Assembly: GCA_013297755.1 (NCBI GenBank)
Contig: JAAFIH010000017.1
Location: forward strand, 26,264 to 90,263
Reading direction: 5' to 3'
DNA length: 64,000 bases
Source of the DNA: Cytophagales bacterium
Lineage (GTDB): Bacteria > Bacteroidota > Bacteroidia > Cytophagales > UBA9547
How positions within the stretch are numbered: position 1 is the stretch's first letter; the number at the start of each line of letters is the position of its first letter. Positions 653-63,500 of the stretch are shown here, one piece after another. A program made the position numbers and the translations under genes. A model generated the notes under the pieces. It did no database searches. It saw nothing but the letters and a program-made list of their open reading frames with translations, and was not told where the DNA came from.

Positions 653-2056
653 ATGAAAGTTAGAAGCATAGAATTGGATGGTTACAATCAATTTAAGGGA
701 GTAAAAATTGATTTGACCTACCCCAAAGGACACGAAAAAGCTGGAAAACCATTACAAAAAGTTTGTTTTATTGGACAGAGTGGAACTGGAAAAACAAGCA
801 TTTTAAGGTTGATAAAGCGATTTACAACATTAGATAATCGTATTGGGAATAATTTAACAATTCCTGATTTTAAAAAGGATTCCGTAAAAATGGAATTACA
901 ATTATTTGATTTGGATTGGAAACTTACATCTAAGGAAAATACTTTATCTTTTGTGTACTGCACTGATAATAAATTAAATATTGAGACTAAACAATTTATA
1001 AATAAAAGAGATCACTTTAAAAATCAATTAAAGCCCTTTTTAATAAATTTTCCAGTAGAAACTATTTTTTTAAATCAAGTTTATACTAATGAAACAGAGA
1101 GAATGGCTAAGAAATTGTTGGGAATTATTAATGATGATTATTCAGAAGATTTAAACCCAAAACAGGTAATGGATTTTGGAATTGATGCAATAGATAAAAC
1201 TTTTGAATTATTGCTGAAAGAAATAGCTGAACATAGAGCTGAAGAAATAATTTTTAAAAATAAAATTTCTGAAGAAGCTCTCAAAGTAAATTCAAATTCT
1301 GAAGACATTGAAAAAGCGAATAATAAATACAGAGAATGGCTTAAAAAAAATCCTAATCCATTAGAGAAATTAGCAAATAATATTTTAAATGAAGTTTTAA
1401 AACCATTGGGATTAAAAGTAAAAACAGATTTAGATAAAAGTGCAGTTTTACATATCAATAATATTGAAATTCAAACCCTAGATGGTCAGGACATTCCTTA
1501 TAATTTTTGGAGTACAGGTACAAAGCATTTAATAAATTTGCTTATACCATTATATGAATTAAAACCTAATAATGCTATTGTTTTAATAGATGAACCTGAG
1601 CGTTCGATTTATCCAGATATGCAACGTATGATAGTAGATAAATGTGTGCGTTTAGGCACAGATTGTCAATATTTTTTTGCTACACATTCTCCTATTATAG
1701 CTTCTTCTTTTGATCCTTGGGAAATTGTAGAATTAAAATTTAATGAAGCAAATACACATATTTACCAAGAACAATATTACACTGGCGAACGCCATGTAGA
1801 TAATTACAAATTCAATCCCAAATATATGAGTTGGGATTCAATTTTAAACGAAGTGTTTGATATTGAAGGAGATGGAAATCCAGAAAGGCAAAGGAAAATT
1901 AATGAACTAGCAAAAGTTAATCAAAGAATAACAAAGAAAAAACTAAAAGAAAGTAAAGAAACACTTTTGAAAGATGTTGATTATTTGAAAGATGTTGAAG
2001 ACTTCAAAATTTTGGCTAATCAACTTAAATGGAATTTGGGAAGTGTTGAAATATGA
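653..2056 (+). CDS. AAA/ABC-type ATPase, Septu PtuA-like
   Basis: Walker A GQSGTGKTS, Walker B VLIDEPERSIYPD, ATHSP motif, with a long helical insert between the two halves (AAA15/AAA21 architecture). The stop overlaps the next start in ATGA. Confidence 0.6.
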   Translation: MKVRSIELDGYNQFKGVKIDLTYPKGHEKAGKPLQKVCFIGQSGTGKTSILRLIKRFTTLDNRIGNNLTIPDFKKDSVKMELQLFDLDWKLTSKENTLSFVYCTDNKLNIETKQFINKRDHFKNQLKPFLINFPVETIFLNQVYTNETERMAKKLLGIINDDYSEDLNPKQVMDFGIDAIDKTFELLLKEIAEHRAEEIIFKNKISEEALKVNSNSEDIEKANNKYREWLKKNPNPLEKLANNILNEVLKPLGLKVKTDLDKSAVLHINNIEIQTLDGQDIPYNFWSTGTKHLINLLIPLYELKPNNAIVLIDEPERSIYPDMQRMIVDKCVRLGTDCQYFFATHSPIIASSFDPWEIVELKFNEANTHIYQEQYYTGERHVDNYKFNPKYMSWDSILNEVFDIEGDGNPERQRKINELAKVNQRITKKKLKESKETLLKDVDYLKDVEDFKILANQLKWNLGSVEI

Positions 2057-2724
2057 GAAAAATTGATAAAACTCCTTTTTGGGCTACTGCATTTGCTAAT
2101 TACATCAAAGAATATAATAATAAATTTGGACACCATCCAGTTTACGACAGCAGTAAAAACGCTTATTATAATGACATTTACTACAATTTACTATTTTGTC
2201 AAAGAGGTTTATGTGCTTATACTGAAGATTTAATTGACGATACTATTTGGAAAGCAGTACCTCAAAATTGGGAAAAAGGTAAATATATTGGCAAAACACT
2301 AAAATTAGATGCTGATTTAGAACATTTTGACCCAAAACTGAAAGATAAACAAGGTTGGGATTTTGATAATTTATTTTTGGTTAAAATTTATAACAATAGA
2401 AAAATAAAATTAGGAAAAGATGTTCATCTTTTTTTCAAACCTGACTTACCAAATTATAATCCTAAAAAATACATGGAATACAATTTTCTTACTCATCAAT
2501 TTGTTCCTTTAAATGATTTGAGCGAAGATTTGTACACTAAAGTTGATTATATGATAGATACTTTGGGAATTAATGCTCATTCTGTAATTAGCAATCGAAG
2601 ACAATATTTGTTAGAAATTAAAATCACTTTGAAAAATGAGTTTGTAGCATTTGAAATATATCAAAATGAGCGATTGTATAAATTTTTTACAGCTTTTGAA
2701 ATGTCTAAATTTGATTTGATTTGA
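2053..2724 (+). CDS. HNH-like nuclease-family protein, PtuB / TIGR02646-like, degenerate zinc ligands
   Basis: CAYTE...(about 35 aa)...LEHFDPK...WDFDNLFLV...NNRK resembles the TIGR02646 pattern CxYCE...EHfxPk...W.NL...N..K. It is translationally coupled to the upstream ATPase by a 4-nt overlap. Confidence 0.45.
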   Translation: MRKIDKTPFWATAFANYIKEYNNKFGHHPVYDSSKNAYYNDIYYNLLFCQRGLCAYTEDLIDDTIWKAVPQNWEKGKYIGKTLKLDADLEHFDPKLKDKQGWDFDNLFLVKIYNNRKIKLGKDVHLFFKPDLPNYNPKKYMEYNFLTHQFVPLNDLSEDLYTKVDYMIDTLGINAHSVISNRRQYLLEIKITLKNEFVAFEIYQNERLYKFFTAFEMSKFDLI

Positions 2725-2825
2725 TTCAATCGTAAAAAAATAAAGTCTTTTAATTACAATTGACTAAAAAAATTTAATACAAGGATGTTAAAAGAATAAA
2801 TAATTTTATCTAAATTTATAAAAAA

Positions 2826-4619
2826 ATGGCTGATATTAGTTTTAGACCAGAAAGTAAAGTTCTAAATGAAATTTTTGGCAGAGATATTAAATATATCATT
2901 CCTGAATACCAAAGACCTTATTCTTGGGATTGTCTTGGGAAAAGCGATCAAAATAATCAGGTAAATGTAATGTGGGATGATTTGGTAAACTATTTTGAAA
3001 GTAACGACCAAAAATATCCATATTTTATTGGTTCAATGGTATTGATAGATAATAACAATTTTAGTTATGATGTGGTCGATGGGCAACAAAGACTAACTAC
3101 TCTGATGCTGCTTTTATCCTCAATAAAATGCTTATTTGATAAGCAAATTGTAATTTATGAGCAAAAAAACAACCCAGAATTTCTAAATACATTAAAAGCA
3201 GGATTAACGTCTATAAATGAGCTTTTATTTAATAACATAATAGAAGGAGTAATTACTTTGGAAAAGAAAGTAAAAATAGATAAACAATCGAGTGGTTATA
3301 ATTTTGATGAAGTTTTAAAAGATGCCATAGAATGTAAAGAATACAAAGAGGAAAGCTATAAAAATGCTAGTTCAGAACAAAAATCAGCAATTAAAAGATA
3401 CTTTAACAATAGAAATTTTTTAGAAAAAAAAGTTTCAGAAAAATTTACCACTCTTGGCGAATTCAACAAAACAGATTTTATTAATCTTAATAAGTTTATC
3501 CATTTTTTAAAAACTAAAGTATCTGTAGTAAGAATACTTACATCAGACATTACAATTGCTTACCATATTTTTGAAATTTTAAATAATCGTGGACTTCCAT
3601 TATCTAATAAAGATTTATTTAGGAATTTTTTAATAAAAAAATTCACCGAAATTGGAGATATTGAAGCAAATAAAAAATGGTTGGCTCTTGAGAATATATA
3701 TGATTTTAATGATGATTTTCTAGGAAGATGGGTAGAAAGTACGAATGCTAATCAGCAAAAATATTCTTCATATAATGATGTGATTGCTCTATATGATTCA
3801 AAATATCATGATTCAATATCTAAAAAGAAAATTGAAATTTTTTATGAGGATTTTAAAAATGCCTTGCCACTTTATGAAAAGATATTAAATGTAGATTTTA
3901 AAACAAGATTCTTTAAAACCAAAATTAACTTCTTTTTAGTTGCAGGTAATCAAAGATATAGCCTAAATCTTCTTCTATCACTTTTAAGAAATATTCAAGA
4001 AAATATTGAACAAAATGAAATTGCTAAAATCATTTTAGCTGAATACGATAAATACATAAATTATTGTTTAAGTTTTGGTAGATTTTCATCAAAACCTGTT
4101 TATAAATGTATTGATTTTATCAATAAGAAACAATGGGATAATGCAGTAAAAGAATTTTCCCAACATTATGATCAACAAGAAGTGTTAGAAGGCTTTGAAA
4201 ATGATTTTTATGGAAATAATGAAACTCCAAAACTTTTTCTTGCAAAATATCATTGGTATTCTACCTTTAAAGATGACGATGTAATTTCAGATTCAACTCT
4301 TTATTTTGATAAATGCACATTAGAGCATATTATTCCCCAATATCCAACAGAAGAGTCTCAGTGGAAAAAAGATTTTAAAAAGAAATTTAGAGAAGATTAT
4401 ACTTACAAGCTTGGAAACATGACATTAGTTACTTCAAAAATGAATTCAGCTGCAAAAAACTATGACTTTATCGAAAAGAAAAAAAAATATGCTTATTCAA
4501 ACCTTCCTATGACTATTGAACTTGCAAATTTACATGAAGAAATTTCTGAAAAATATATTTCAAATAGAAATAATAGTATCACTCAAATATTAATAAAAGA
4601 AATCTCTAATACTTATTAG
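2826..4619 (+). CDS. GmrSD-like type IV restriction enzyme (DUF262 + DUF1524)
   Basis: N-terminal IPEYQRPYSW and DGQQRLTT (DUF262 ParB-like NTPase motifs). C-terminal EHIIPQ ... LGNMTLVTSKMNSAAKN (DUF1524 His-Me finger motif). Confidence 0.75.
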   Translation: MADISFRPESKVLNEIFGRDIKYIIPEYQRPYSWDCLGKSDQNNQVNVMWDDLVNYFESNDQKYPYFIGSMVLIDNNNFSYDVVDGQQRLTTLMLLLSSIKCLFDKQIVIYEQKNNPEFLNTLKAGLTSINELLFNNIIEGVITLEKKVKIDKQSSGYNFDEVLKDAIECKEYKEESYKNASSEQKSAIKRYFNNRNFLEKKVSEKFTTLGEFNKTDFINLNKFIHFLKTKVSVVRILTSDITIAYHIFEILNNRGLPLSNKDLFRNFLIKKFTEIGDIEANKKWLALENIYDFNDDFLGRWVESTNANQQKYSSYNDVIALYDSKYHDSISKKKIEIFYEDFKNALPLYEKILNVDFKTRFFKTKINFFLVAGNQRYSLNLLLSLLRNIQENIEQNEIAKIILAEYDKYINYCLSFGRFSSKPVYKCIDFINKKQWDNAVKEFSQHYDQQEVLEGFENDFYGNNETPKLFLAKYHWYSTFKDDDVISDSTLYFDKCTLEHIIPQYPTEESQWKKDFKKKFREDYTYKLGNMTLVTSKMNSAAKNYDFIEKKKKYAYSNLPMTIELANLHEEISEKYISNRNNSITQILIKEISNTY

Positions 4620-48320: not shown

Positions 48321-49892
48321 CTAGATATTATAAAATTTTATTGCATTTTTTGCCATGATTTTTTCTTGTTCGTTGATACTTAAATCAGAAATATAGTTTG
48401 ATACAATTCCTAAAACTTGTTGATAATCAGCGGCTAGTAAACACACAGGCCAATCGGAGCCATAAATCAATCTATCAGTTCCAAACGTGTTGAAAACGGT
48501 ATCTAATACTTGTCTAAAATCAGATTCTTTCCAACTTTGCCAATGGGCTTCGGTTACCATGCCTGAAACTTTGCAAAATACATTGGGCAAATGTTTAAAT
48601 GCCTGCATATCATTTTTCCATTCACTAAAATCTTGGTTACGAATATCAGGTTTAGCCAAATGGTCAATCACAAATTTTTGATTTGGAAATTCTTGAACCA
48701 GTTCCAATGCCTCTTCCAATTGATGTGGTTTTAGTAATAAATCGTAAGTATAATTTTGGTTTTTAAGCTTTGAAATAAAATATCTAAACTTATCATCAGA
48801 CATAAATCCGTTTGGCTTTGCTTGGATGATATGTCGGAAACCTTTTAATAGTTCGTAGTTGGGAGTTTGTAGTTGGGAGTTCGTAGTTGGGAGTTCGTGG
48901 TTGGGAGTTCGTAGTTGGGAGTTCGTAGTTGGGAGTTCGTGGTTGGGAGTTCGTAGTTGGGAGTTCGTAGTTGGGAGTTGGGAGTTCGTAGTTAGGAGTT
49001 CGGAGTTAGGAGTTGGGAGTTCGTAGTTGGGAGTTCGTAGTTGGGAGTTAGGAGTTAGGAGTTGGGAGTTCGTAGTTAGGAGTTGGGAGTTCGTGGTTCG
49101 TGGTTCGGAGTTATTTTTCTCCGAACTAAAACCTTTCTCCGAACTACGAACTACGAACTCCGAACTATTACCTTTCTCCGAACTACGAACTCTGAACTCC
49201 GAACTATTTCCTTTCTCCGAACTACGAACTCCGAACTCCGAACTATTTCCTTTCTCCGAACTAAAACCTAAATCTGCCCAGCCCACAACACCTTTTATAA
49301 AATCATGTTTTGAAGCCAAATCTAATAAAAACTCTGTTTCTTGCCATGTTTCGGCAGCTTGAACGGCAATAATTCCGTAGTTTGTAGTTGGGAGTTCGTA
49401 GATGGGAGTTCGTAGTTCGTAGTTGGGAGTTCGTAGTTCGTAGTTGGGAGTTCGTGGTTCGTAGTTGGGAGTTCGTGGTTGGGAGTTTTTTTTCTCCGAA
49501 CTCCGAACTCCGAACTCCGAACTATTTTTTTTCTCCGAACTACGAACTAAGTTCTCCAAACTATTACCTTTCTCCGAACTACGAACTACAAACTCCGAAC
49601 TAAAACCTTTCTCCGAACTCCGAACTCCGAACTCCGAACTATTATTTTTCTCCAAACTATTACCTTTCCCCGAACTACGAACTACGAACTCCGAACTATT
49701 ACCTTTCCCCGAACTACGAACTACGAACTCCGAACTATTACCTTTCCCCGAACTAAAATCATCAGGAAGAAATGATTTTTTAATCACTTCCATTCCATCA
49801 CCAATCCAATCAAATTCTGGATTATTTGCATCGTAATTCCAAAAATGCACATGAGAATCTATAAAGTTCACGGTTGGTTGTTGGTTGTTCAT
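48321..49892 (-). CDS. amidohydrolase-2 family protein (L-fucono-1,5-lactonase-like) carrying two in-frame repeat insertions
   Basis: Conserved blocks FIDSHVHFW, GIIAVQAAE, GVVGWADL, KGFRHI, FVIDHLAKP and LIYGSDWPV. They are interrupted by about 126 and about 139 codons of low-complexity sequence. Total is 523 aa against my recollection of roughly 280-290 aa for this family. Confidence 0.75.
   Translation of the reverse strand: MNNQQPTVNFIDSHVHFWNYDANNPEFDWIGDGMEVIKKSFLPDDFSSGKGNSSEFVVRSSGKGNSSEFVVRSSGKGNSLEKNNSSEFGVRSSEKGFSSEFVVRSSEKGNSLENLVRSSEKKNSSEFGVRSSEKKNSQPRTPNYEPRTPNYELRTPNYELRTPIYELPTTNYGIIAVQAAETWQETEFLLDLASKHDFIKGVVGWADLGFSSEKGNSSEFGVRSSEKGNSSEFRVRSSEKGNSSEFVVRSSEKGFSSEKNNSEPRTTNSQLLTTNSQLLTPNSQLRTPNYELPTPNSELLTTNSQLPTTNSQLRTPNHELPTTNSQLRTPNHELPTTNSQLQTPNYELLKGFRHIIQAKPNGFMSDDKFRYFISKLKNQNYTYDLLLKPHQLEEALELVQEFPNQKFVIDHLAKPDIRNQDFSEWKNDMQAFKHLPNVFCKVSGMVTEAHWQSWKESDFRQVLDTVFNTFGTDRLIYGSDWPVCLLAADYQQVLGIVSNYISDLSINEQEKIMAKNAIKFYNI
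48847..49262. repeat. inverted-arm heptamer element inside the lactonase CDS (insertion 2)
   Basis: Plus strand: about 263 nt of TTGGGAG/TTCGTAG units, then the apex TTCGGAG-ttattttt-CTCCGAA, then about 145 nt of CTCCGAA/CTACGAA units with CTATTTCCTTT spacers. Confidence 0.85.
49377..49755. repeat. inverted-arm heptamer element inside the lactonase CDS (insertion 1)
   Basis: About 110 nt of TTGGGAG/TTCGTAG units, then the apex GGGAG-T8-CTCC, then about 262 nt of the complementary CTCCGAA/CTACGAA units in 39-nt higher-order repeats. Confidence 0.85.
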
Positions 49893-50256: not shown

Positions 50257-50437
50257 GTTTTTGGTTTTTAGTTTTTAGTTGGGAGTTCGTAGAATTTAGT
50301 TGGGAGTTCGTAGAATTTAGTTCGTAGTTCGTAGAATTTAGTTTGTAGTTCGTAGAATTTAGTTCGTAGTTCGTAGTTGGGAGTTGGTTGTTCATAGAAT
50401 TGAGTTTTTAGTTGGTGGATTTTAGTTTTGGAGTTTA
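50257..50437. repeat. heptamer array, G-rich orientation (left arm of a large intergenic inverted repeat)
   Basis: 21-nt higher-order unit AGTTGGGAGTTCGTAGAATTT x4 plus TTTTTAG/TTGGGAG units. It is the reverse complement of the array at 50663-50874. Confidence 0.85.
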
Positions 50438-50662
50438 TTTTGAAATTATTAGTCTATCGATTAAATTATTTTTTTTGGGATAAATAGTTACTAAGTGATG
50501 TTACGCTGATTTTTTTTTAAATCATTGTCAGTCTTATTTTTTCAAGCATTCATAGGTTATTAACAATATTAAAATTTCAATAAAATTATAGTTTTGCGTA
50601 ACATCAATTACTAAATATAACTTATTAACTGGATTCGACATAAAATTTAATAAATAATAAAC

Positions 50663-50874
50663 TAATTACAACAAACTACAAACAACGAACAATCGATTCC
50701 CAACTCCCAACCACTAACTCCCAACTATGAACTAAATTCTACGAACTACCAACTACGAACTACGAACTAAATTCTACGAACTCCTAACTACAAACAACGA
50801 ACTAAATTCTACGAACTCCCAACTCCTAACAACGAACTCCCAACTCCCAACTACGAACTCCCAACTACCAACTG
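50663..50874. repeat. heptamer array, C-rich orientation (right arm)
   Basis: It contains AACTAAATTCTACGAAC x3, the exact complement of the left-arm unit, plus CTCCCAA/CTACGAA units. It runs into the last codons of the FAH-family gene. Confidence 0.85.
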
Positions 50875-51807
50875 TCTTTGCTCTCCCAACCCATCTATTC
50901 CCAACTCTACTATATCACCTGCTTTTAGGTATTGTGGTGGATTGAATCCTAATCCTACTCCTGCTGGAGTTCCAGTAGAAATTACATCTCCAGGCAATAA
51001 AGTCATAAATTGACTGATGTAGCTTACCACAAATGGCACATTGAAAATAAAATCATTGGTATTGCTATCTTGCTTCATTTCTCCATTTACTTTGAGCCAA
51101 AGTCTAAGATTGTGCACATCTTTTACTTCATCTTTGGTGGCTAAAAATGGACCAAGAGGAGCAAAAGTATCGCAGCCCTTTCCTTTATCCCACTGTCCGC
51201 CACGCTCAAGCTGAAAAGCTCTTTCACTATAATCATTATGCACACAATAGCCGGCAACATAGTTTAATGCCTCATTTTCAGACACATAAGTGGCTTTTTT
51301 GCCAATTACAATAGCAAGTTCTACTTCCCAATCGGTTTTTTCAGAGGTTTTTGGAATTATAATATTTCCGTTGGGGTCGTTCAAGGCAGTGGTAGATTTA
51401 AAGAACAAAATAGGCTCTTTAGGAATAGGCGAATTGGTTTCGTGGGCATGAAGTCTATAATTCAATCCTACACAAACTATTTTAGATGGACGAGCTACGC
51501 AAGAAGCCAGTTTGGGAGTTGGGGCTTGGGAGTTCGTAGTTGGGAGTTCGTAGTTCGTAGTTGGGAGTTGGTAGTTCGTAGTTGGGAGTTGGGAGTTCGT
51601 AGTTGGGGCTTGGGAGTTCGTAGTTGGGAGTTCGTAGTTCGTAGTTGGGAGTTTGTCCAATTCTAAGGTTTTTAGTTTTTCAAGCCCACCATATGCAAAG
51701 AAATCTTCATTAAAATCTGAAAAGATGCTGCTTACATCATAGATTTTATCATTGGCTAATAAGCCTGGTTTTACTTGATTGTTTTGGTAAAATCGTACTA
51801 GTTTCAT
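50851..51807 (-). CDS. fumarylacetoacetate hydrolase (FAH) family protein; candidate 2,4-diketo-3-deoxy-L-fuconate hydrolase, with an in-frame heptamer insertion
   Basis: PSKIVCVGLNYRLHAHE, WEVELAIVIGK, QWDKGKGCDTFAPLGP and TLLPGDVISTGTPAGVG. A 46-aa LPTTNYE/LPTTNSQ tract lies between the N-terminal lobe and the catalytic domain. Confidence 0.8.
   Translation of the reverse strand: MKLVRFYQNNQVKPGLLANDKIYDVSSIFSDFNEDFFAYGGLEKLKTLELDKLPTTNYELPTTNSQAPTTNSQLPTTNYQLPTTNYELPTTNSQAPTPKLASCVARPSKIVCVGLNYRLHAHETNSPIPKEPILFFKSTTALNDPNGNIIIPKTSEKTDWEVELAIVIGKKATYVSENEALNYVAGYCVHNDYSERAFQLERGGQWDKGKGCDTFAPLGPFLATKDEVKDVHNLRLWLKVNGEMKQDSNTNDFIFNVPFVVSYISQFMTLLPGDVISTGTPAGVGLGFNPPQYLKAGDIVELGIDGLGEQRQLVVGSS
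51514..51651. repeat. heptamer array inside the FAH CDS (single orientation, 138 nt)
   Basis: TTGGGAG/TTCGTAG/TTGGGGC units on the plus strand. The coding strand reads the stop-free CTCCCAA/CTACGAA version as (LPTTN[YS][EQ])n. Confidence 0.85.
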
Positions 51808-51818
51808 AATTTTATATT

Positions 51819-51912
51819 AGCCCCCCAACCCCCGAAGGGGGAGTTTAAATAGATTTAAGCACTGGGGATTAAGTGCTTCCCCGAAGTATTCCCCCTTCGG
51901 GGGGTGGGGGCT
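51819..51912. repeat. GC-rich palindromic element (CCCCCGAAGGGGG family) filling an intergenic gap
   Basis: AGCCCCCCAACCCCCGAAGGGGGA ... TCCCCCTTCGGGGGGTGGGGGCT terminal inverted repeats, with inner hairpin AAGCACT-ggggatt-AAGTGCTT. It ends exactly at the SDR stop codon (51913). Confidence 0.8.
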
Positions 51913-54467: not shown

Positions 54468-54630
54468 GTTTTTTAGTTTTTAGTTGGGAGTTCGTAGTTG
54501 GGAGTTGGGAGTTGGGAGTTCGTAGTTGGGAGTTCGTGGTTGGGAGTTCGTAGTTGGGAGTTCGTAGTTGGGAGTTAGTAGTTAGTAGTTGGGAGTTCGT
54601 GGTTTTTAGTTCGTGGTTTTTAGTTTGAAG
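54468..54630. repeat. heptamer array TTGGGAG/TTCGTAG (G-rich on plus strand)
   Basis: Read directly. It fills the gap between the ABM-domain gene and the mutarotase gene; the sense (minus) strand reads CTCCCAACTACGAA up to the mutarotase ATG. Confidence 0.9.
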
Positions 54631-55155: not shown

Positions 55156-55307
55156 ACAACCTACTCCCAACACCCAACTACGAACACCCAACTACAAACT
55201 ACGAACTACGAACTCCCAACTACAAACTACGAACTCCAAACCACGAACTCCCAACTACAAACCACGAACACCCAACTACAAACTACGAACTACGAACTAC
55301 TAACTCC
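55156..55307. repeat. heptamer array CTCCCAA/CTACGAA/CACCCAA (C-rich on plus strand)
   Basis: Read directly. It abuts the stop codon of the second fucosidase (55308). A short opposite-orientation array (55066-55096) lies about 60 nt away. Confidence 0.9.
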
Positions 55308-57940: not shown

Positions 57941-58170
57941 AGAAGTTCCACTTTTTTGAAAAGTGGAACTTCTACATTTACAAAGATACCATCGCTCCAA
58001 ACAAAGGTATCTTTATCATAAAATTTATGCGTAAGCAAAAGCCCCCTTCGGGGTTCTGTGCATCGAACAGAAGTACTTTCAGGGGGCTTTCTATCAAAAG
58101 CCCCTTTCGGGATTCTGTCCATCGAACAGAAGTACTTTCATGGGGCTTTCCCTGAAGTACCACTTTTTAA
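57941..58170. repeat. mosaic of nested hairpin modules (composite repeat, copy 1)
   Basis: Modules in order: AGAAGTTCCAC-ttttttgaaaa-GTGGAACTTCT; AAGATACC...GGTATCTT; two copies of AAAGCCCCCT..TTCTGT-gcatcga-ACAGAA..AGGGGGCTTT; a degenerate GAAGTACCAC hairpin. The same module order recurs at 63262-63500. Confidence 0.8.
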
Positions 58171-58276: not shown

Positions 58277-58660
58277 ATGGCACAAAGTATCACACTTGAA
58301 ACTTATATATCTTTAGAAAAAGAATTTGGAAAAGCTATTGCAGAAAAAGTAACTACTTTATTGGATTTTTCATTTGCCCAAGCAGAAAAAAAAGTAGAAG
58401 AAGTTGCTACTCAAAAGAAGTTAGAAATCAAAGATGAACTAAGCAAAGAATTGGCTTCAAAAGCTGATATTGCTATTATTAAAGCCGAAATATCAGTTGT
58501 AAGGCAAGAAATTGAAGTTGTAAGGTCTGAAATAGCAATTCTAGAATCTAAACTAGAAAAGAAAATAACTATATACTTTTTAATTCTACTTGCTACTATG
58601 ATTATCCTCAACAAAGATTCGCTTACCTTAATTGCCCAACTATTGGGACTCGTAAAATAA
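58277..58660 (+). CDS. coiled-coil protein with a C-terminal TM anchor (DUF1640-like)
   Basis: Heptad-rich KADIAIIKAEISVVRQEIEVVRSEIAILESKLEKK followed by the hydrophobic segment ITIYFLILLATMIIL. The ATG at 58277 is preferred. Confidence 0.45.
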   Translation: MAQSITLETYISLEKEFGKAIAEKVTTLLDFSFAQAEKKVEEVATQKKLEIKDELSKELASKADIAIIKAEISVVRQEIEVVRSEIAILESKLEKKITIYFLILLATMIILNKDSLTLIAQLLGLVK

Positions 58661-58697
58661 TTTAAAACCATCAATCAAACATTTTAAACATCAACTT

Positions 58698-61600
58698 ATG
58701 AAAAATTCAATATTCAGCCCCCAAACCCCCGAAGGGGGCTTTCTGAGACTACAAACTTCAAACATTGTACTCCAATTCAAAAATCTTGCGCCAGCCTCAA
58801 ATACAAAAAAAGTCCTTTTTAAAGCCCCCTTCGGGGGTTTGGGGGCTGTTCTTTTCACATTCCTCCTCCTTACCCACCTCACCTTTGCTCAACGCACCTT
58901 TGCCCCACAAGTTACCTACGCCACAGGTACTAATCCATACAGCGTAGCGATAGGCGACCTTACTGGCGATGGCAGAGCAGATTTGGCAGTGGCGAATAGT
59001 AATATCAACACCATAAGTGTATATACCAACACAGGCAGCGGCAGCTTTGCCCCACAGGTAACCTACAACACAGGTTCTAATCCATACAGCGTATTTATAG
59101 GCGACCTTACAGGCGATGGCAAAGCCGATTTGGCAGTAGCGAATTATATTAGCAATACCGTAAGTGTATATACCAACACAGGCAGCGGCAGCTTTGCCCC
59201 ACAAGTAACCTACGCCACAGGTTCTCGTCCTTGTAGCGTAGCGATAGTTGACCTTACAGGCGATGGCAAAGCCGATTTGGCAGTAGCGAATCGTAGTAGC
59301 AATACCGTAAGTGTATATACCAACACAGGCAGCGGCACCTTTGCCCCCCAAGTTACCTACGCCACAGGTACTAGTCCATACAGCGTAGCCATAGGCGACC
59401 TTACAGGCGATGGCAGACCCGATTTGGTAGTAGCGAATAGTAATAGCAATACCGTAAGTGTATATACCAACACAGGCAGCGGCAGCTTTGCAGCCCAAGT
59501 AACCTACGCCACAGGGTCTGGTCCATTCAGCGTAGCGATAGGCGACCTTACAGGCGATGGCAAAGCCGATTTGGCAGTAGCGAATAATGGTAGCAATACC
59601 GTAAGTGTATATACCAACACTGGCAGCGGCAGCTTTGCAGCCCAAGTAACCTACGCCACAGGTCTTGGTCCAATCAGCGTAGCTATAGGCGACCTTACAG
59701 GCGATGGCAGAGCCGATTTAGCAGTAGCGAATCAGAGTAGCAATACCGTAAGTGTACTCACCAACACAGGCAGCGGCACCTTTGCCCCCCAAGTTACCTA
59801 CGCCACAGGTACTACTCCATGGAGCGTAGCCATAGGCGACCTTACAGGCGATGGCAAAGCAGATTTGGCAGTAGCGAATTATAATAGCAATACCGTAAGT
59901 GTACTCATCGCACAAGAGGTGCAGTTTATCAATGGGTTTTTAGTTTCAAATAAGGTATATGGCAGTACTTTTGCTTTTAATGCAACAGCTACAAGTGGCT
60001 TGCCGGTGAGCTACAGCAGTTCAAATCCTAGTATTTTAAGTCTTGTGGGCAATGCTGCTACAGCTACAGGTGTAGGAGTAGTTACAGTTACAGCTTTTCA
60101 AAATGGCAATGCTACTTTTGCAGGAGTTACACTTACGGGTGTGCTTACCATTACCAAAGCCAACCTTACTGTTCAAGGCAATAATAATACTAGGGTATAT
60201 GGAACTGCTAACCCTGCTTTTACAAGTTCGGTTACAGGTTTGGTATTGGGCAGCACAGTAAATGTAACCTACAGCACCACAGCCACACCTAGTAGCAATG
60301 TGGGCAATTATCCTATAAACATAAGTGTTACAGGCATAGCCTTGGCAAATTATAACCTCACTACTTTGGCAGGGGTTTTAACCATAACAGCAAAACCTGC
60401 CACCGTTTCGGGCAATAATTTTAGTAGAGAATATAGTGCTTCTAACCCCATATTTACAGGCAGTGTTTTAGGTTTGGTAAATAATGATGCAATTACATAT
60501 AGTGGTTCTACATCCGCAACAAGCCTTTCGGGAATTGGCGTTTATGCAATAATTGCAACCGCTGTTGGTACAAACATTCTCAATTATCAATTCTCCATTC
60601 TCAATTCAAACCTCTCCATTACCGCAAAATCAGCCACCGTTTCGGGCAATAATTTTAATAGAGTTTATGGTTCAACCAATCCTATATTTACAGGTACCGT
60701 TTTAGGTTTGGTAAATGGCGATGTACTTAATTATAGTGGTTCTACTACAGCCACAAGTCTTTCTGGAGTTGGCGTTTATGCAATTCTTGCAACTTTTGTG
60801 GGAAATAATGTGTCAAATAATTATAAACTCTCCATTCTCAATTCTCAATTAACTATTACTGCTTTGGCTTTTGTGAGTACAGCACCTAGCCCTATTGTTT
60901 TTAATAGTACAGTTTATGATGGTCAGCCAAAAGTGCCTTCTGTGGTTGGTTTGCCTAGCACTTCGGGAGTAAACTATACCTACAATGGCAGTAGCACAGC
61001 TCCCACCAATGCAGGAAGTTATACAGTTGTGGGTATAATCACAGACCCAAATTACACAGGTACAGTTACAAGTGTAATCATAATATCTCCATCAGATATT
61101 AGCAATCAACTTTCGGTAGCTGGGCTTAGCAATAGTATGTATAATGGTTCGCCCAAAACTACAAGCATTACAGGTTTGCCTTTAGGAGTTGCCAGTAGCG
61201 TTACCTACAATGGTAGCCCAACTGCACCTACAAACGCAGGTACATATACAGTTATAGGAATTGTAAATGATAATAATTATATAGGTACAGTTACAAGTGT
61301 TATCGTAATTTCTCCATCAGACATTAGCAACCAACTTTCGGTAGCTGGGCTTAGCAATAGTGTATATAATGGTTCGCCCAAAACTACAAGCATTACAGGT
61401 TTGCCTTCAGGAGTTGCCAGTAGCGTTACCTACAATGGTAGCCCAACTGCACCTACAAACGCAGGTACATATACAGTTATAGGAATTGTAAATGATAATA
61501 ATTATATAGGTACAGTTACAAGTGTTATCCTAATTTCTCCATCAGACATTAGCAACCAACTTTCGGTAGCTGGGCTTAGCAATAGTATGTATAATGGTTC

Positions 61601-62747
61601 GCCAAAAGCTACAAGTATTACAGGTTTGCCTTCAGGAGTTGCCAGTAGCGTTACCTACAATGGTAGCCCAACTGCACCTACAAACGCAGGTACTTACACA
61701 GTTATAGGAATTGTAAATGATAATAATTATATAGGTACAGTTACAAGTGTTATCCTAATTTCTCCATCAGACATTAGCAACCAACTTTCGGTAGCTGGGC
61801 TTAGCAATAGTGTATATAATGGTTCGCCAAAAGCTACAAGCATTACAGGTTTGCCTTCAGGAGTTGCCAGTAGCGTTACCTACAATGGTAGCCCAACTGC
61901 ACCTACAAACGCAGGTACATATACAGTTATAGGAATTGTAAATGATAATAATTATGTAGGCACAACCACAAGCACAATGGTAATTTTACCAGTTTCGGCA
62001 ACCATAGTTGGCAACAATGTAAACAGAGTATATGGCTTAGCTAATCCCATATTTACAGGTACAATATTAGGTTTGGTAAATAGCGATGTTATAAATTATG
62101 AAGGTTCTACATCAGCCACAAGCCTTTCGGGAATTGGGGTTTATGCAATCATAGCCACAGCCACAGGAACAAACGTGGGTAATTATCAATTCTCCATTTT
62201 CAATGCTCAATTAACAGTAACACCAGCAAATGCAACAGCAAGTGTATCTGGCATAGTGTCGGATGGAAATATTGTTAACGCCACTGTGCCAACAAGTATT
62301 ACCATTTCGGGTTCAGGTTTCGAGCCAGGAGCAAGTGTTACTGTCAATGGAGTGGTTTTGTCAAACTTAATAGTAATTAACGGCTCAACAATTATAGCTA
62401 CTTTGCCAGCTGGCTCAGCCACAAGTAGCAATGTGAGTGCAATAGTTCAAAACCCAAACCAAAATCCAAGTGCCTCAACTGCTATAGTTGTAGTAAACGC
62501 CAATCCAACTTCTACTAGCCTACCAGTCTACCAATCTACCAACCTTACAGTTTTCCCCAATCCAAGTAAAGGTAGTTTTACAATTTCGGCATCTATGCCA
62601 CTAGGCAAAATAATGATTTACACCCTCGATGGAAAATTGGTGCAAACCAAAACTACCAATGAAAACAAACTATTTGTTTCGGGTATTTCAACAGGAACAT
62701 ATATTGTATATGTGGATAAATCGAGTGTAAAAGTAGTGGTTGAATAG
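58698..62747 (+). CDS. FG-GAP/VCBS beta-propeller + MBG + Ig-like repeat protein with a T9SS type A sorting domain
   Basis: Seven 49-aa FAPQVTYATG..P.SVAIGDLTGDGKADLAVAN..SNTVSVYTNTGSGS repeats. MBG-like (R)VYG..NPIFTG..LGLVNGD modules. Four near-identical 75-aa Ig-like modules. C-terminus LTVFPNPSKGSFTI...GTYIVYVDKSSVKVVVE. Confidence 0.8.
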   Translation: MKNSIFSPQTPEGGFLRLQTSNIVLQFKNLAPASNTKKVLFKAPFGGLGAVLFTFLLLTHLTFAQRTFAPQVTYATGTNPYSVAIGDLTGDGRADLAVANSNINTISVYTNTGSGSFAPQVTYNTGSNPYSVFIGDLTGDGKADLAVANYISNTVSVYTNTGSGSFAPQVTYATGSRPCSVAIVDLTGDGKADLAVANRSSNTVSVYTNTGSGTFAPQVTYATGTSPYSVAIGDLTGDGRPDLVVANSNSNTVSVYTNTGSGSFAAQVTYATGSGPFSVAIGDLTGDGKADLAVANNGSNTVSVYTNTGSGSFAAQVTYATGLGPISVAIGDLTGDGRADLAVANQSSNTVSVLTNTGSGTFAPQVTYATGTTPWSVAIGDLTGDGKADLAVANYNSNTVSVLIAQEVQFINGFLVSNKVYGSTFAFNATATSGLPVSYSSSNPSILSLVGNAATATGVGVVTVTAFQNGNATFAGVTLTGVLTITKANLTVQGNNNTRVYGTANPAFTSSVTGLVLGSTVNVTYSTTATPSSNVGNYPINISVTGIALANYNLTTLAGVLTITAKPATVSGNNFSREYSASNPIFTGSVLGLVNNDAITYSGSTSATSLSGIGVYAIIATAVGTNILNYQFSILNSNLSITAKSATVSGNNFNRVYGSTNPIFTGTVLGLVNGDVLNYSGSTTATSLSGVGVYAILATFVGNNVSNNYKLSILNSQLTITALAFVSTAPSPIVFNSTVYDGQPKVPSVVGLPSTSGVNYTYNGSSTAPTNAGSYTVVGIITDPNYTGTVTSVIIISPSDISNQLSVAGLSNSMYNGSPKTTSITGLPLGVASSVTYNGSPTAPTNAGTYTVIGIVNDNNYIGTVTSVIVISPSDISNQLSVAGLSNSVYNGSPKTTSITGLPSGVASSVTYNGSPTAPTNAGTYTVIGIVNDNNYIGTVTSVILISPSDISNQLSVAGLSNSMYNGSPKATSITGLPSGVASSVTYNGSPTAPTNAGTYTVIGIVNDNNYIGTVTSVILISPSDISNQLSVAGLSNSVYNGSPKATSITGLPSGVASSVTYNGSPTAPTNAGTYTVIGIVNDNNYVGTTTSTMVILPVSATIVGNNVNRVYGLANPIFTGTILGLVNSDVINYEGSTSATSLSGIGVYAIIATATGTNVGNYQFSIFNAQLTVTPANATASVSGIVSDGNIVNATVPTSITISGSGFEPGASVTVNGVVLSNLIVINGSTIIATLPAGSATSSNVSAIVQNPNQNPSASTAIVVVNANPTSTSLPVYQSTNLTVFPNPSKGSFTISASMPLGKIMIYTLDGKLVQTKTTNENKLFVSGISTGTYIVYVDKSSVKVVVE
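58716..58847. repeat. GC-rich palindromic element (CCCCCGAAGGGGG family) inserted in-frame in the signal-peptide coding region
   Basis: AGCCCCCAAACCCCCGAAGGGGGCTTT ... AAAGCCCCCTTCGGGGGTTTGGGGGCT, 27-bp perfect terminal inverted repeats. It is exactly 132 nt, which is 44 codons. Confidence 0.8.
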
Positions 62748-62760
62748 GTAACAAAGGATG

Positions 62761-63248
62761 CGAACGCAGACAGGGTTTTGAACCCTGTCTGCGTTTGATT
62801 TTTTAAAGATTCTGTCGCTTGGAGCGATGATTTCTTTTTTTAAACTACAAACCTATAAGGTTTTAAAAACCTTATAGGTTTGCGAACGCAGACAGGGTTT
62901 TGAACCCTGTCTGCGTTTGATTTTTTAAAGATTCTATCGCTTGGAGCGATGATTTCTTTTTTTTAACTACAAACCTATAAGGTTTTAAAAACCTTATAGG
63001 TTTGCGAACGCAGACAGGGTTTTGAACCCTGTCTGCGTTTGATTTTTTAAAGATTCTATCGCTTGGAGCGATGATTTCTTTTTTTTAACTACAAACCTAT
63101 AAGGTTTTAAAAACCTTATAGGTTTGCGAACGCAGACAGGGTTTTGAACCCTGTCTGCGTTTGATTTTTTAAAGATTCTATCGCTTGGAGCGATGATTTC
63201 TTTTTTTTAACTACAAACCTATAAGGTTTTAAAAACCTTATAGGTTTA
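62761..63248. repeat. 4 x 122-bp near-identical tandem repeat, each unit built of three hairpins
   Basis: Units start at 62761, 62883, 63005 and 63127. Hairpins are AACGCAGACAGGGT-loop-ACCCTGTCTGCGTT (+TGATTTTTT), ATCGCT-tgg-AGCGAT, and the perfect palindrome AAACCTATAAGGTTTT/AAAACCTTATAGGTTT. Confidence 0.9.
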
Positions 63249-63261
63249 TTTACCGATTTTT

Positions 63262-63500
63262 TAAAAAGTGAAACTTCTACGTTTACAAATATACCATCGC
63301 TCCAAACAAAGGTATCTTTATCATAAAATTCATGAGTTAGCAAAAGCCCCCTTCGGGGGTTTGGGGGCTTACTATCAAAAGCCCTCTTCGGGGTTCTGTG
63401 CATCGAACAGAAGTACTTTCAGGGGTTCTGTGCATCGAACAGAAGTACTTTCAGGGGGCTTTCCCTGAAGTTCCACTTTTTTGAAAAGTGGAACTTCTAC
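63262..63500. repeat. mosaic of nested hairpin modules (composite repeat, copy 2)
   Basis: Same module order as 57941-58170, in direct orientation, ending with GAAGTTCCAC-ttttttgaaaa-GTGGAACTTC. Confidence 0.8.

Follow-up and report, generated by a model that had tools for sequence, protein, structure and literature searches.

How a long and perfect palindrome can come to lie within the signal peptide of a secreted protein, and whether it is translated there, is the question raised by one locus in a 64,000-nt stretch of DNA from a Cytophagales bacterium (contig JAAFIH010000017.1; hereafter the window, meaning the whole stretch that was analyzed). At this locus a 132-nt, 44-codon element with palindromic arms (58716..58847, + strand) follows codon 6 of a gene that encodes a protein of 1349 amino acids (58698..62747, + strand). 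We consider it fairly probable that this element belongs, as a short form without a nuclease, to a palindrome-armed insertion family that occurs across the Bacteroidota, and that it is read through within the host open reading frame (ORF) from the ATG at 58698.

Architecture of the element and its host gene

The product of the host gene contains FG-GAP (x7) and MBG repeats and ends with a type IX secretion system (T9SS) sorting domain, as defined by the ORF list and Pfam; its sequence is 100% identical over 1349 aa to P0001 of our protein collection. The sorting domain is a Por_Secre_tail (PF18962, E=1.4e-10) at aa 1285-1344 (62550..62729, + strand), so that the protein is regarded as a T9SS cargo which needs a Sec leader to pass the inner membrane. 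The start codon and codons 2-6 (MKNSIF; 58698..58715, + strand) are presumed to be the original n-region of this leader. The element follows directly and in frame, translated as SPQTPEGGFLRLQTSNIVLQFKNLAPASNTKKVLFKAPFGGLGA, at the coordinates and in the frame that an earlier note on this DNA had given. It begins at 58716 with AGCCCCCAAACCCCCGAAGGGGGCTTT, the reverse complement of which ends at 58847, and it is flanked by ATATTC and GTTCTT.

The left arm CAGCCCCCAAACCCCCGAAGGGGGCTTT (58715..58742, + strand; 28 nt) encodes the peptide SPQTPEGGF and is stop-free in every frame, while the right arm AAAGCCCCCTTCGGGGGTTTGGGGGCTG (58821..58848, + strand) encodes KAPFGGLGA and is the reverse complement of the left arm at 100% of positions. 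Six-frame translation shows that both arms are stop-free in all six frames and give peptides rich in proline and glycine. The AT-rich spacer between them (58743..58820, + strand; 78 nt) is open only in the gene frame and in the register-matched antisense frame, and the same two frames are the only ones open across the whole 132 nt. The 44-aa insert contains no Pfam domain and no Hint or splicing domain, and a word-index search with its peptide yielded no candidates, which reflects a limit of that index. There are four matches to the 27-mer arm in the window, with none expected by chance as judged from window shuffles; two of these are the arms of the 58.7-kb element, a third is the variant at 51819, and the fourth stands alone at 63343-63369. 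A search of the whole window against Rfam at the gathering threshold returned no matching family, and in E-value mode the interval 58500-59000 gave sub-threshold matches to microRNA precursors only, which reflect the long hairpin. A terminator scan gave one weak consensus match, located in the right arm, but inside an ORF and 18 nt past the start of that ORF.

Downstream of the element lie the hydrophobic core and c-region VLFTFLLLTHLTFA (58848..58889, + strand) with a predicted signal peptidase I site after A64, placing Q65 (58890-58892) at +1. By a hydrophobicity heuristic the core is VLFTFLLLTHL, followed by T-F-A/Q (a slash marks the cleavage site) with small residues at -3 and -1, and a glutamine at +1 of the signal peptidase I site is the recognized rule in Bacteroidetes (PMC5837995). 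Deletion of 58716-58847 yields MKNSIFVLFTFLLLTHLTFAQ, in which the leader reads MKNSIFVLFTFLLLTHLTFA/Q. The leader counted from the ATG at 58698 is 65 residues long with the element and 21 without it, as compared to a usual length of ~18-30 residues with a short charged n-region; leader lengths among homologues of the host protein are too heterogeneous to provide a baseline.

The earlier note had proposed that removal of the element restores a canonical n-h-c leader, and the deletion does produce a Bacteroidetes-type leader ending in A/Q. It had also reported that no ATG occurs between the element and the hydrophobic core, which we find as well; GTG is likewise absent there, leaving the TTG at 58839 as the sole in-frame start-like codon. 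Its description of the element as having perfect terminal inverted repeats needs to be divided. The arms are indeed 100% complementary and, at 28 nt, one base longer than was stated, whereas the implied kinship with miniature inverted-repeat transposable elements (MITEs) fails, as the family has no target-site duplication and its full-length form carries a DUF559 nuclease instead of a transposase.

The arms define a family in the Bacteroidota

A genome-collection scan with the slightly degenerate arm core CCCCMAACCCCCGAAGGGGG recovered at least 119 loci, nearly all from Bacteroidota, and the family counts that follow are among the matches listed. The taxa represented include Flavobacterium, Leeuwenhoekiella, Cytophagales, Chitinophagales, Saprospiraceae, Prevotellaceae, Paludibacter and Chryseobacterium. 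The conserved arm is a GC-rich motif of ~25-28 nt, (A)AGCCCC(C/A)AACCCCCGAAGGGGG, together with its reverse complement, and its conserved termini are (A)AGC...GCT(T). We assigned elements to the family when two inverted arms, AGCCCC(C/A)AACCCCCGAAGGGGG and its reverse complement, lay 20-300 nt apart; the arms of the window element fit the motif with 0 mismatches. There were 130 exact arm occurrences, 58 with an inverted partner less than 400 nt away and 68 lone. The 58 paired elements range from 59 to 321 nt in length and have spacers that are mutually unrelated. No target-site duplication is associated with them, as a direct repeat of ≥3 nt at any boundary offset was found in at most 2 of 43 well-defined elements, the same as in controls, and a repeat of ≥4 nt in none. 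The triplet TTC that occurs on either side of the window element (58713-15 and 58849-51) was considered as a target-site duplication and rejected, the family having no such feature.

Residence within genes is common in this family. Nearly half of the arm occurrences (58/130, ~45%) are found 60 or more codons inside ORFs. Both orientations are represented there, and the arms are translated into peptides such as SPxTPEGG, APQPPKGE, PPSGVGG, SPFGGWG and LPLRGLGG. Among the 58 paired elements, 20 have an ORF that runs through them without interruption. The flanking peptides identify the in-gene hosts as housekeeping enzymes, of which MetH alone has been confirmed by Pfam. Each arm can, by prediction, form alternative hairpins. 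Gene-borne copies persist where the frame is kept and become part of the host ORF. Other members are located exactly at the 5' ends of genes, namely NuoL-like genes in loci L009, L071 and L004 and a gene for a TAT-signal protein in L055; in L009, L071 and L055 the element supplies the start codon and an N-terminal extension.

Lone arms can also occupy a fixed position. The LeuRS-like ORFs of L042, L053 and L096 have a lone arm (translated KPPSGVWG) at the same position, with the arm exact though the flanking DNA has diverged; a reference site that is empty for this LeuRS arm was not found. The exactness of this arm in the three loci suggests either strong constraint at the DNA level or repeated conversion.

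The arm core occurs exactly in only 6 of 2.9 million IMG/VR contigs (L132-L137), on which ground we rejected phage as the vehicle of the family. Literature searches for the motif, the arm peptides, in-frame DUF559 cassettes and in-frame palindromes of Bacteroidetes found no description, with subscription-only papers falling outside the search. The family is therefore apparently undescribed, and an earlier description could exist in that subscription-only literature.

A full-length form carries a DUF559 nuclease

Twelve DUF559 segments are present in 11 loci among the matches listed, and 11 of the 12 have a left arm on their upstream side and a right arm on their downstream side. These arm-DUF559-arm cassettes measure 437-483 nt from AGC to GCT. 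Pfam analysis of the inserts detected only DUF559/MTES_1575 (DUF559 at E=1e-38 and 1e-36). No Hint domain was found by Pfam, and an intein identity is accordingly ruled out. In the MetH of L041, for example, Pfam places DUF559 between the B12-binding_2 and B12-binding domains. Compared with solved structures the DUF559 insert matches 3hrl (E=8e-20) and 3r3p (E=1.3e-3), the latter being a "mobile intron protein" that represents the nuclease domain of I-Bth0305I, a homing endonuclease (PMC3239194). A survey of PD-(D/E)XK nucleases has placed Vsr, DUF559 and the I-Bth0305I homing endonuclease in one clade (PMC3424549). There are also free-standing DUF559 genes, in Prevotella and Bacteroidales, that are arm-flanked and wedged between housekeeping genes of the same strand.

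Alignment of orthologues identifies both filled and empty sites. One site in MetH (site B) is filled in L041, L038, L105, L106 and L072 and empty in L025, L047 and L092, while a second (site A) is filled in L025, L047, L072 and L092 and empty in L038 and L105. An IleRS site is filled in L084 and empty in L103. Site 1 of LeuRS is filled in L042 with the DUF559 form and in L068 with a 62-nt arm-arm form, and is empty in L096. The single Flavobacterium MetH of L072 contains two arm-DUF559-arm cassettes (192-575 and 1446-1814) at different sites, both in the MetH frame. In the IleRS cassette of L084, the right arm has exactly the 28-mer sequence of the window and encodes the same KAPFGGLGA peptide. 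We therefore assign the window element to this family, as a short form that carries no nuclease. The earlier note had taken the element to belong to a repeat family that colonizes coding sequence in frame; this is borne out more widely, as the same arms are read through in MetH, IleRS, LeuRS and other ORFs of many Bacteroidota, with empty sites in orthologues.

One intergenic DUF559 cassette is seen in several strain variants, at a locus with RF3, DUF559 and Sua5 (L126-L128). The canonical left arm is upstream in L126, while in L127 and L128 tandem right-arm units (GTCATCACCCCAACCGGATGGCCGCCCC.TTCGGGGGTCGGGGGGCT) lie on both sides of the DUF559 gene.

A possible variant of the locus in the source organism

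The source organism is present in the Logan assemblies SRR9948923, SRR9948926 and SRR9948931. A contig from the first of these (L122) matches the window through the upstream gene, the ATG and MKNSIF, the left arm and ~60 nt of the spacer with 1 single-nucleotide polymorphism (SNP), and then diverges. L122 thus independently confirms the left junction only; for the right junction the evidence is the window assembly itself. After the point of divergence L122 contains two 78-nt units and then a different textbook leader; the variant of the locus, its left arm and the start of its spacer included, is at 693-923 of L122. Each unit consists of a spacer module, CTTGCG.CAGCC.CAAA.AC...TCC, followed by a GC hairpin that differs between the two. 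In the window spacer this module is CTTGCGCCAGCCTCAAATACAAAAAAAGTCC (58785..58815, + strand), and it recurs twice in L122.

The L122 frame that begins at the same ATG is open for 117 codons, reading MKNSIF-SPQTPEGGF...HFKKISIFNSAFSIIFLLAIIFSPNTTLYA/QYSGGTGT. By chance, the 204 nt past the left arm would have no stop in a particular frame with P=0.019, which argues that read-through of elements embedded in leaders is maintained.

Start codon and fate of the leader

Translation of the host gene most likely starts at the ATG at 58698 and would continue through the element to give a 65-residue leader. RNA folding predicts a 28-bp GC-rich stem (minimum free energy -68.4 kcal/mol, z -8.9) that begins 17 nt past the A of the ATG and buries the TTG at 58839 (58839..58841, + strand). 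The mean pairing probability over -20 to +20 is 0.38 for the ATG (0.30 with the element deleted), which has an A at -12, and 0.73 for the TTG, which has G or C at -3, -6, -12 and -13. Initiation in Bacteroidetes does not depend on a Shine-Dalgarno sequence but on adenines at these upstream positions and on a lack of structure between ~-20 and +20 (PMC6847099), and for this reason we favor the ATG at 58698, whose initiation region is unstructured, over the TTG at 58839.

Such a leader need not block secretion. Lysines K37, K38 and K42 of the insert precede the hydrophobic core, and the last 29 residues of the leader (KKVLFKAPFGGLGAVLFTFLLLTHLTFA/Q) would provide a positive n-region, an h-region and an A/Q site. 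Because these residues still form an n-h-c signal by the heuristic, export and removal of the whole leader may take place. The 28-bp stem probably lowers or modulates translation of the host gene. If read-through is true, then this is a predicted T9SS cargo with a 65-residue leader and a strong hairpin right after its start codon, and peptides such as NSIFSPQTPEGGFLR are predicted.

Evaluation of alternative explanations

Several observations weigh against the explanation that we favor, and they bear on the start codon, on the link to the nuclease cassettes and on the history of this particular locus. For the start codon, shuffled versions of the 78-nt spacer are open in a given frame with P=0.20, and when a factor of 1/3 is included for a length divisible by three, the probability that this single copy is in frame and open by chance is ~0.07. 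The element could then be a 5' untranslated region (UTR), with the protein starting at the in-frame TTG at 58839 to give MGAVLFTFLLLTHLTFAQ (a leader of MGAVLFTFLLLTHLTFA/Q) and with the ATG-MKNSIF frame, as a relic or a brief upstream reading frame, staying open only by accident. Where family members lie close to a gene start, most of them do sit in the 5' UTR, 2-5 codons 5' of a clear ATG (L003, L004, L020, L021, L044, L050, L078). Neither the NuoL-like ORF of L009 and L071 nor the TAT-signal protein of L055 has an ATG past the element, so that the start must lie within it; the in-arm sequence GGT TTG GGG GCT of L009 and L071 would give a NuoL N-terminus of normal length. Additionally, L122 has GTG GTG in its G-rich tail, just 5' of an HFKK n-region. 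Since translation must begin inside the element in L009, L071 and L055, initiation at TTG is a real contender, but we judge it unlikely at this locus. The TTG lies within the 28-bp GC-rich stem with G or C upstream of it, contrary to the unstructured and A-rich setting that Bacteroidetes favor, and the leader that would result has no charged n-region. After the ATG, on the other hand, come K and hydrophobic residues, which make up a textbook leader upon removal of the element, and the frame of the ATG is also open across the 231-nt variant insert of L122 (P ~0.02). We therefore retain read-through from the ATG as the preferred account of the start.

The second set of observations concerns how the short forms relate to the long ones. 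The insertion sites have no target in common, and cassettes that are close relatives are found at two MetH sites, in IleRS, in LeuRS and in intergenic gaps. A tblastn search found no DUF559 gene in the 64-kb window, and a hidden Markov model (HMM) of DUF559 cores scored six-frame translations of the short-element spacers no better than shuffles (0.6 bits for the window spacer), leaving no DUF559 remnant in evidence. As the spacers have no such remnant and the window has no such gene, the arms and same-site occupancy are all that connects the short and long forms. The idea that short elements are internal deletions of the DUF559 ORF was rejected because their HMM scores are at shuffle level, and a likeness noticed by eye between LRLQTSNIVLQFKN and the DUF559 C-terminus was rejected on the same result.

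These findings would suit short elements that are REPIN/REP-like or IS200/IS605-like and are moved by a tyrosine (Y1/HUH) transposase, with DUF559 a mere passenger or neighbor. Hairpin arms, inverted doublets, the lack of target-site duplications, spacers free of DUF559 remnants and a 64-kb window free of a DUF559 gene are all consistent with elements of this type. Against it, the arms do not have the GTAG/CGTC heads that define the REP superfamilies (PMC3733652), and ~45% of arm occurrences in the matches listed (58/130) lie within ORFs. Moreover, 11 of 12 DUF559 segments lie exactly between arms whose orientation is fixed, in frame as well as free-standing, and no Y1 transposase was noticed beside the arms, a systematic search for one not having been made. 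We view this alternative as rather improbable.

The mechanism that we propose instead starts from a full-length form in which an ORF for DUF559, a Vsr-like PD-(D/E)XK nuclease, is set between two arms (~440-480 nt); short arm-spacer-arm forms and lone arms occur as well. The short form would move in trans through the arm-associated DUF559 nuclease, by copying during repair of a break and not by DDE transposition. Break-and-repair copying is proposed over DDE transposition because there is no target-site duplication, and this is the weakest step of the scheme. The window copy would have entered a T9SS cargo gene behind codon 6, so as to separate the n-region of the Sec signal peptide from the hydrophobic core.

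The history of the locus itself is less well documented. Neither an empty-site allele nor a full-length orthologue of the host gene was found: none of 6350 homologues is a full-length orthologue, a metagenome scan with the right flank for an empty allele gave 0 matches, and the exact host product is absent from the contig-index records. Insertion at the exact site in the window is therefore argued from the family. One could suppose that a recent insertion inactivated the export or expression of a non-essential surface protein and that the open frame has yet to decay. Arms that are 100% identical suggest a recent event, the host is a singleton, repeat-rich accessory gene, and neither a leader of 65 residues nor a hairpin of -68 kcal/mol at +18 is usual. 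The 1349-codon ORF is nonetheless intact including its T9SS domain, the insert retains positive charges beside the h-region, and family members are tolerated within essential enzymes, which makes inactivation a distinctly improbable account.

L122 raises a further difficulty, for it diverges from the window within the spacer and enters a different leader. The FG-GAP gene may consequently have had an ancestral N-terminus other than MKNSIF, or one of the two assemblies may be chimeric. The element at this locus is thus the breakpoint of either a rearrangement or a mis-assembly, that is, of a structural polymorphism or of a de Bruijn chimera formed through the 33-nt shared arm. In its strongest form this would mean that the junction in the window is an assembly artefact or a structural variant of the population, in which the repeated element linked the 5' end of a gene for one secreted protein with the body of a different gene of this kind. 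L122 comes from another run and is identical up to the spacer before it shows other modules and another leader, and the left arm together with 5 nt more amounts to 33 nt, which is longer than the usual k=31. However, SNPs separate L122 from the window 40 nt ahead of full divergence, indicating that L122 is a distinct sequence and not the same copy after a simple graph switch. In the source record the window contig has a length of 97.8 kb. The joined leader is coherent, and in both window and L122 the element is in frame ahead of the leader core. An artefact or such a variant seems a shade less probable still than inactivation.

Finally, it is highly improbable that the element is spliced out of the message or bypassed by the ribosome, in the manner of T4 gene 60 or of the "byp" GC clusters of mitochondria, to give a mature leader MKNSIFVLFTF...: the arms do join the flanking codons at the base of the 28-bp stem, and mobile GC-rich inserts that undergo bypass are known (bioRxiv 10.1101/2022.08.31.505936), but matching take-off and landing codons are not evident, Rfam gave no intron-like family, and in-gene elements are consistently in frame and stop-free, with long forms holding a complete DUF559 ORF in the host frame, for which reason read-through is expected rather than bypass.

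Comparison with known systems

The closest functional match, judged by analogy, appears to be the Rickettsia palindromic elements. These are likewise small palindromes (~100-150 nt) that occupy both non-coding and coding DNA and that in genes are in frame and translated as an extra peptide. They belong to a different phylum and are apparently unrelated in sequence, and the Bacteroidota family conserves only its arms of ~25-28 nt. The share within ORFs is also larger in the Bacteroidota family, at 58/130 arm occurrences in the matches listed as against 85/728 elements in R. felis (PMC1166351). The Bacteroidota family additionally possesses a full-length form with a DUF559 nuclease. To our knowledge no enzyme has been tied to the Rickettsia palindromic elements.

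The DUF559 cassettes resemble homing elements. Nuclease genes of the Vsr/DUF559 clade occur in conserved genes as Vsr-like (EDxHD) homing endonucleases (PMC2677866, PMC3239194, PMC3424549), and presence or absence at the same orthologue site, as seen with family members in MetH, IleRS and LeuRS, is typical of homing. The ShiLan element is an in-frame homing insertion that does not splice and has no stops in the host frame (PMC11855218). The Bacteroidota inserts are also stop-free in the host frame, but their nuclease is in that frame while the ShiLan nuclease is out of frame. Unlike homing elements and inteins, the Bacteroidota family has palindromic arms and neither Hint nor intron features. 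It further differs from a classical homing element in using many unrelated sites, intergenic ones included, and from homing elements in the abundance of short forms that have no nuclease, the window copy having neither a nuclease ORF nor a remnant of one.

REP/REPIN sequences share with the family the use of short hairpin units, single or as inverted doublets with a spacer, a high copy number and no target-site duplication. The arms of the Bacteroidota family, however, begin with (A)AGCCCC and have no GTAG/CGTC head (PMC3733652). The family is not extragenic, is tied to a PD-(D/E)XK DUF559 gene instead of a Y1 transposase, and is phylum-wide with nearly identical arms. A MITE of the DDE type would agree with the terminal inverted repeats of the window element, with its small size and with a short form devoid of coding capacity. 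It would not agree with the absence of target-site duplications or with internal sequences that are not conserved among copies. Only DUF559 was seen between arms, and no transposase-bearing parent, although a systematic transposase search was not made.

Two further comparisons concern translated palindromes and long leaders. Mitochondrial genes of Nematomorpha contain long perfect inverted repeats in coding sequence, both arms of which are translated, yet these palindromes are organellar and gene-internal and do not form a dispersed family with a nuclease form (PMC6649704).

The extended signal peptide region (ESPR) of autotransporters produces Sec leaders of 50-60 residues in which a long N-terminal extension precedes a normal n-h-c arrangement, and these are still exported. 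The ESPR is a conserved functional protein motif, whereas the extension in the window is a translated mobile palindromic element.

Other repeats and genes in the window

A second complete family element of 94 nt is present at 51819-51912, with the variant arms AGCCCCCCAACCCCCGAAGGGGGAG and ...CCCCCTTCGGGGGGTGGGGGCT. It fills nearly the whole gap between two minus-strand genes, from the stop of an SDR gene (51913) to the start of a gene for an FAH-family hydrolase (51807), and ends 11 nt before that start codon. The lone arm at 63343-63369 (- strand) is identical to the arms at 58.7 kb and is part of a composite repeat cluster (63250-63500) downstream of the host gene. This region also contains two copies of a different hairpin repeat (..GGGGTTCTGTGCATCGAACAGAAGTACTTTCA..; 63390-63457), and the same hairpin family recurs at 58036-58150. 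Immediately 3' of the stop of the FG-GAP gene, at 62759-63247, a unit of 122 nt is present four times in tandem at 99% identity, and each copy contains two separate palindromes, AACGCAGACAGGGTTTTGAACCCTGTCTGCGTT and CAAACCTATAAGGTTTTAAAAACCTTATAGGTTTG.

Heptamer arrays (AGTTCGT/AGTTGGG; periods of 7, 14, 21 and 39) occur in both orientations at 48850-49755, 50274-50873, 51512-51653, 54481-54597 and 55163-55305. They are translated in frame in a lactonase-like ORF (48321-49892), which matches the enzyme only over aa 346-522, and in the FAH ORF (50851-51807), where they read ELPTTNS/QLPTTNY. The palindrome-armed family is thus, as the earlier note had it, a second and unrelated repeat family that also enters coding sequence in this window.

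Directly upstream of the host gene is an MJ0349-like gene of 127 aa (58277..58660, + strand), the stop of which lies 38 nt 5' of the host ATG. At the start of the window, 653-4619 contains genes for a PtuA-like AAA ATPase (a weak NCBIfam match), a small ORF and a GmrSD-type nuclease, which together probably constitute an anti-phage defence cluster.

Implications

Taken one step further, and more tentatively, with slightly less than even confidence, the window element may be the nuclease-less form of an undescribed group of selfish elements in the Bacteroidota. In these, a DUF559 cassette with "coding-neutral" arms would spread by break and repair into intergenic gaps and into ORFs, including those of essential genes and signal peptides, and would not be removed in the manner of an intron or intein. 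The arms, being stop-free and readable as Pro/Gly linkers, would make insertion tolerable, while the short pairs are perhaps landing pads or relics. If this is true, there would be a phylum-wide mobile element that enters genes unlike introns and inteins do, that does not remove itself and whose ends can be translated in every frame as flexible linkers, and the large DUF559 family would gain a concrete role. It would explain odd Pro/Gly-rich insertions or N-terminal extensions in MetH, IleRS, LeuRS, CarB-like and E2-like enzymes of Bacteroidota, and it would be a source of mis-called start codons. Members of the family would also constitute natural experiments on the amount of additional sequence that is tolerated in a Sec leader or an essential enzyme.

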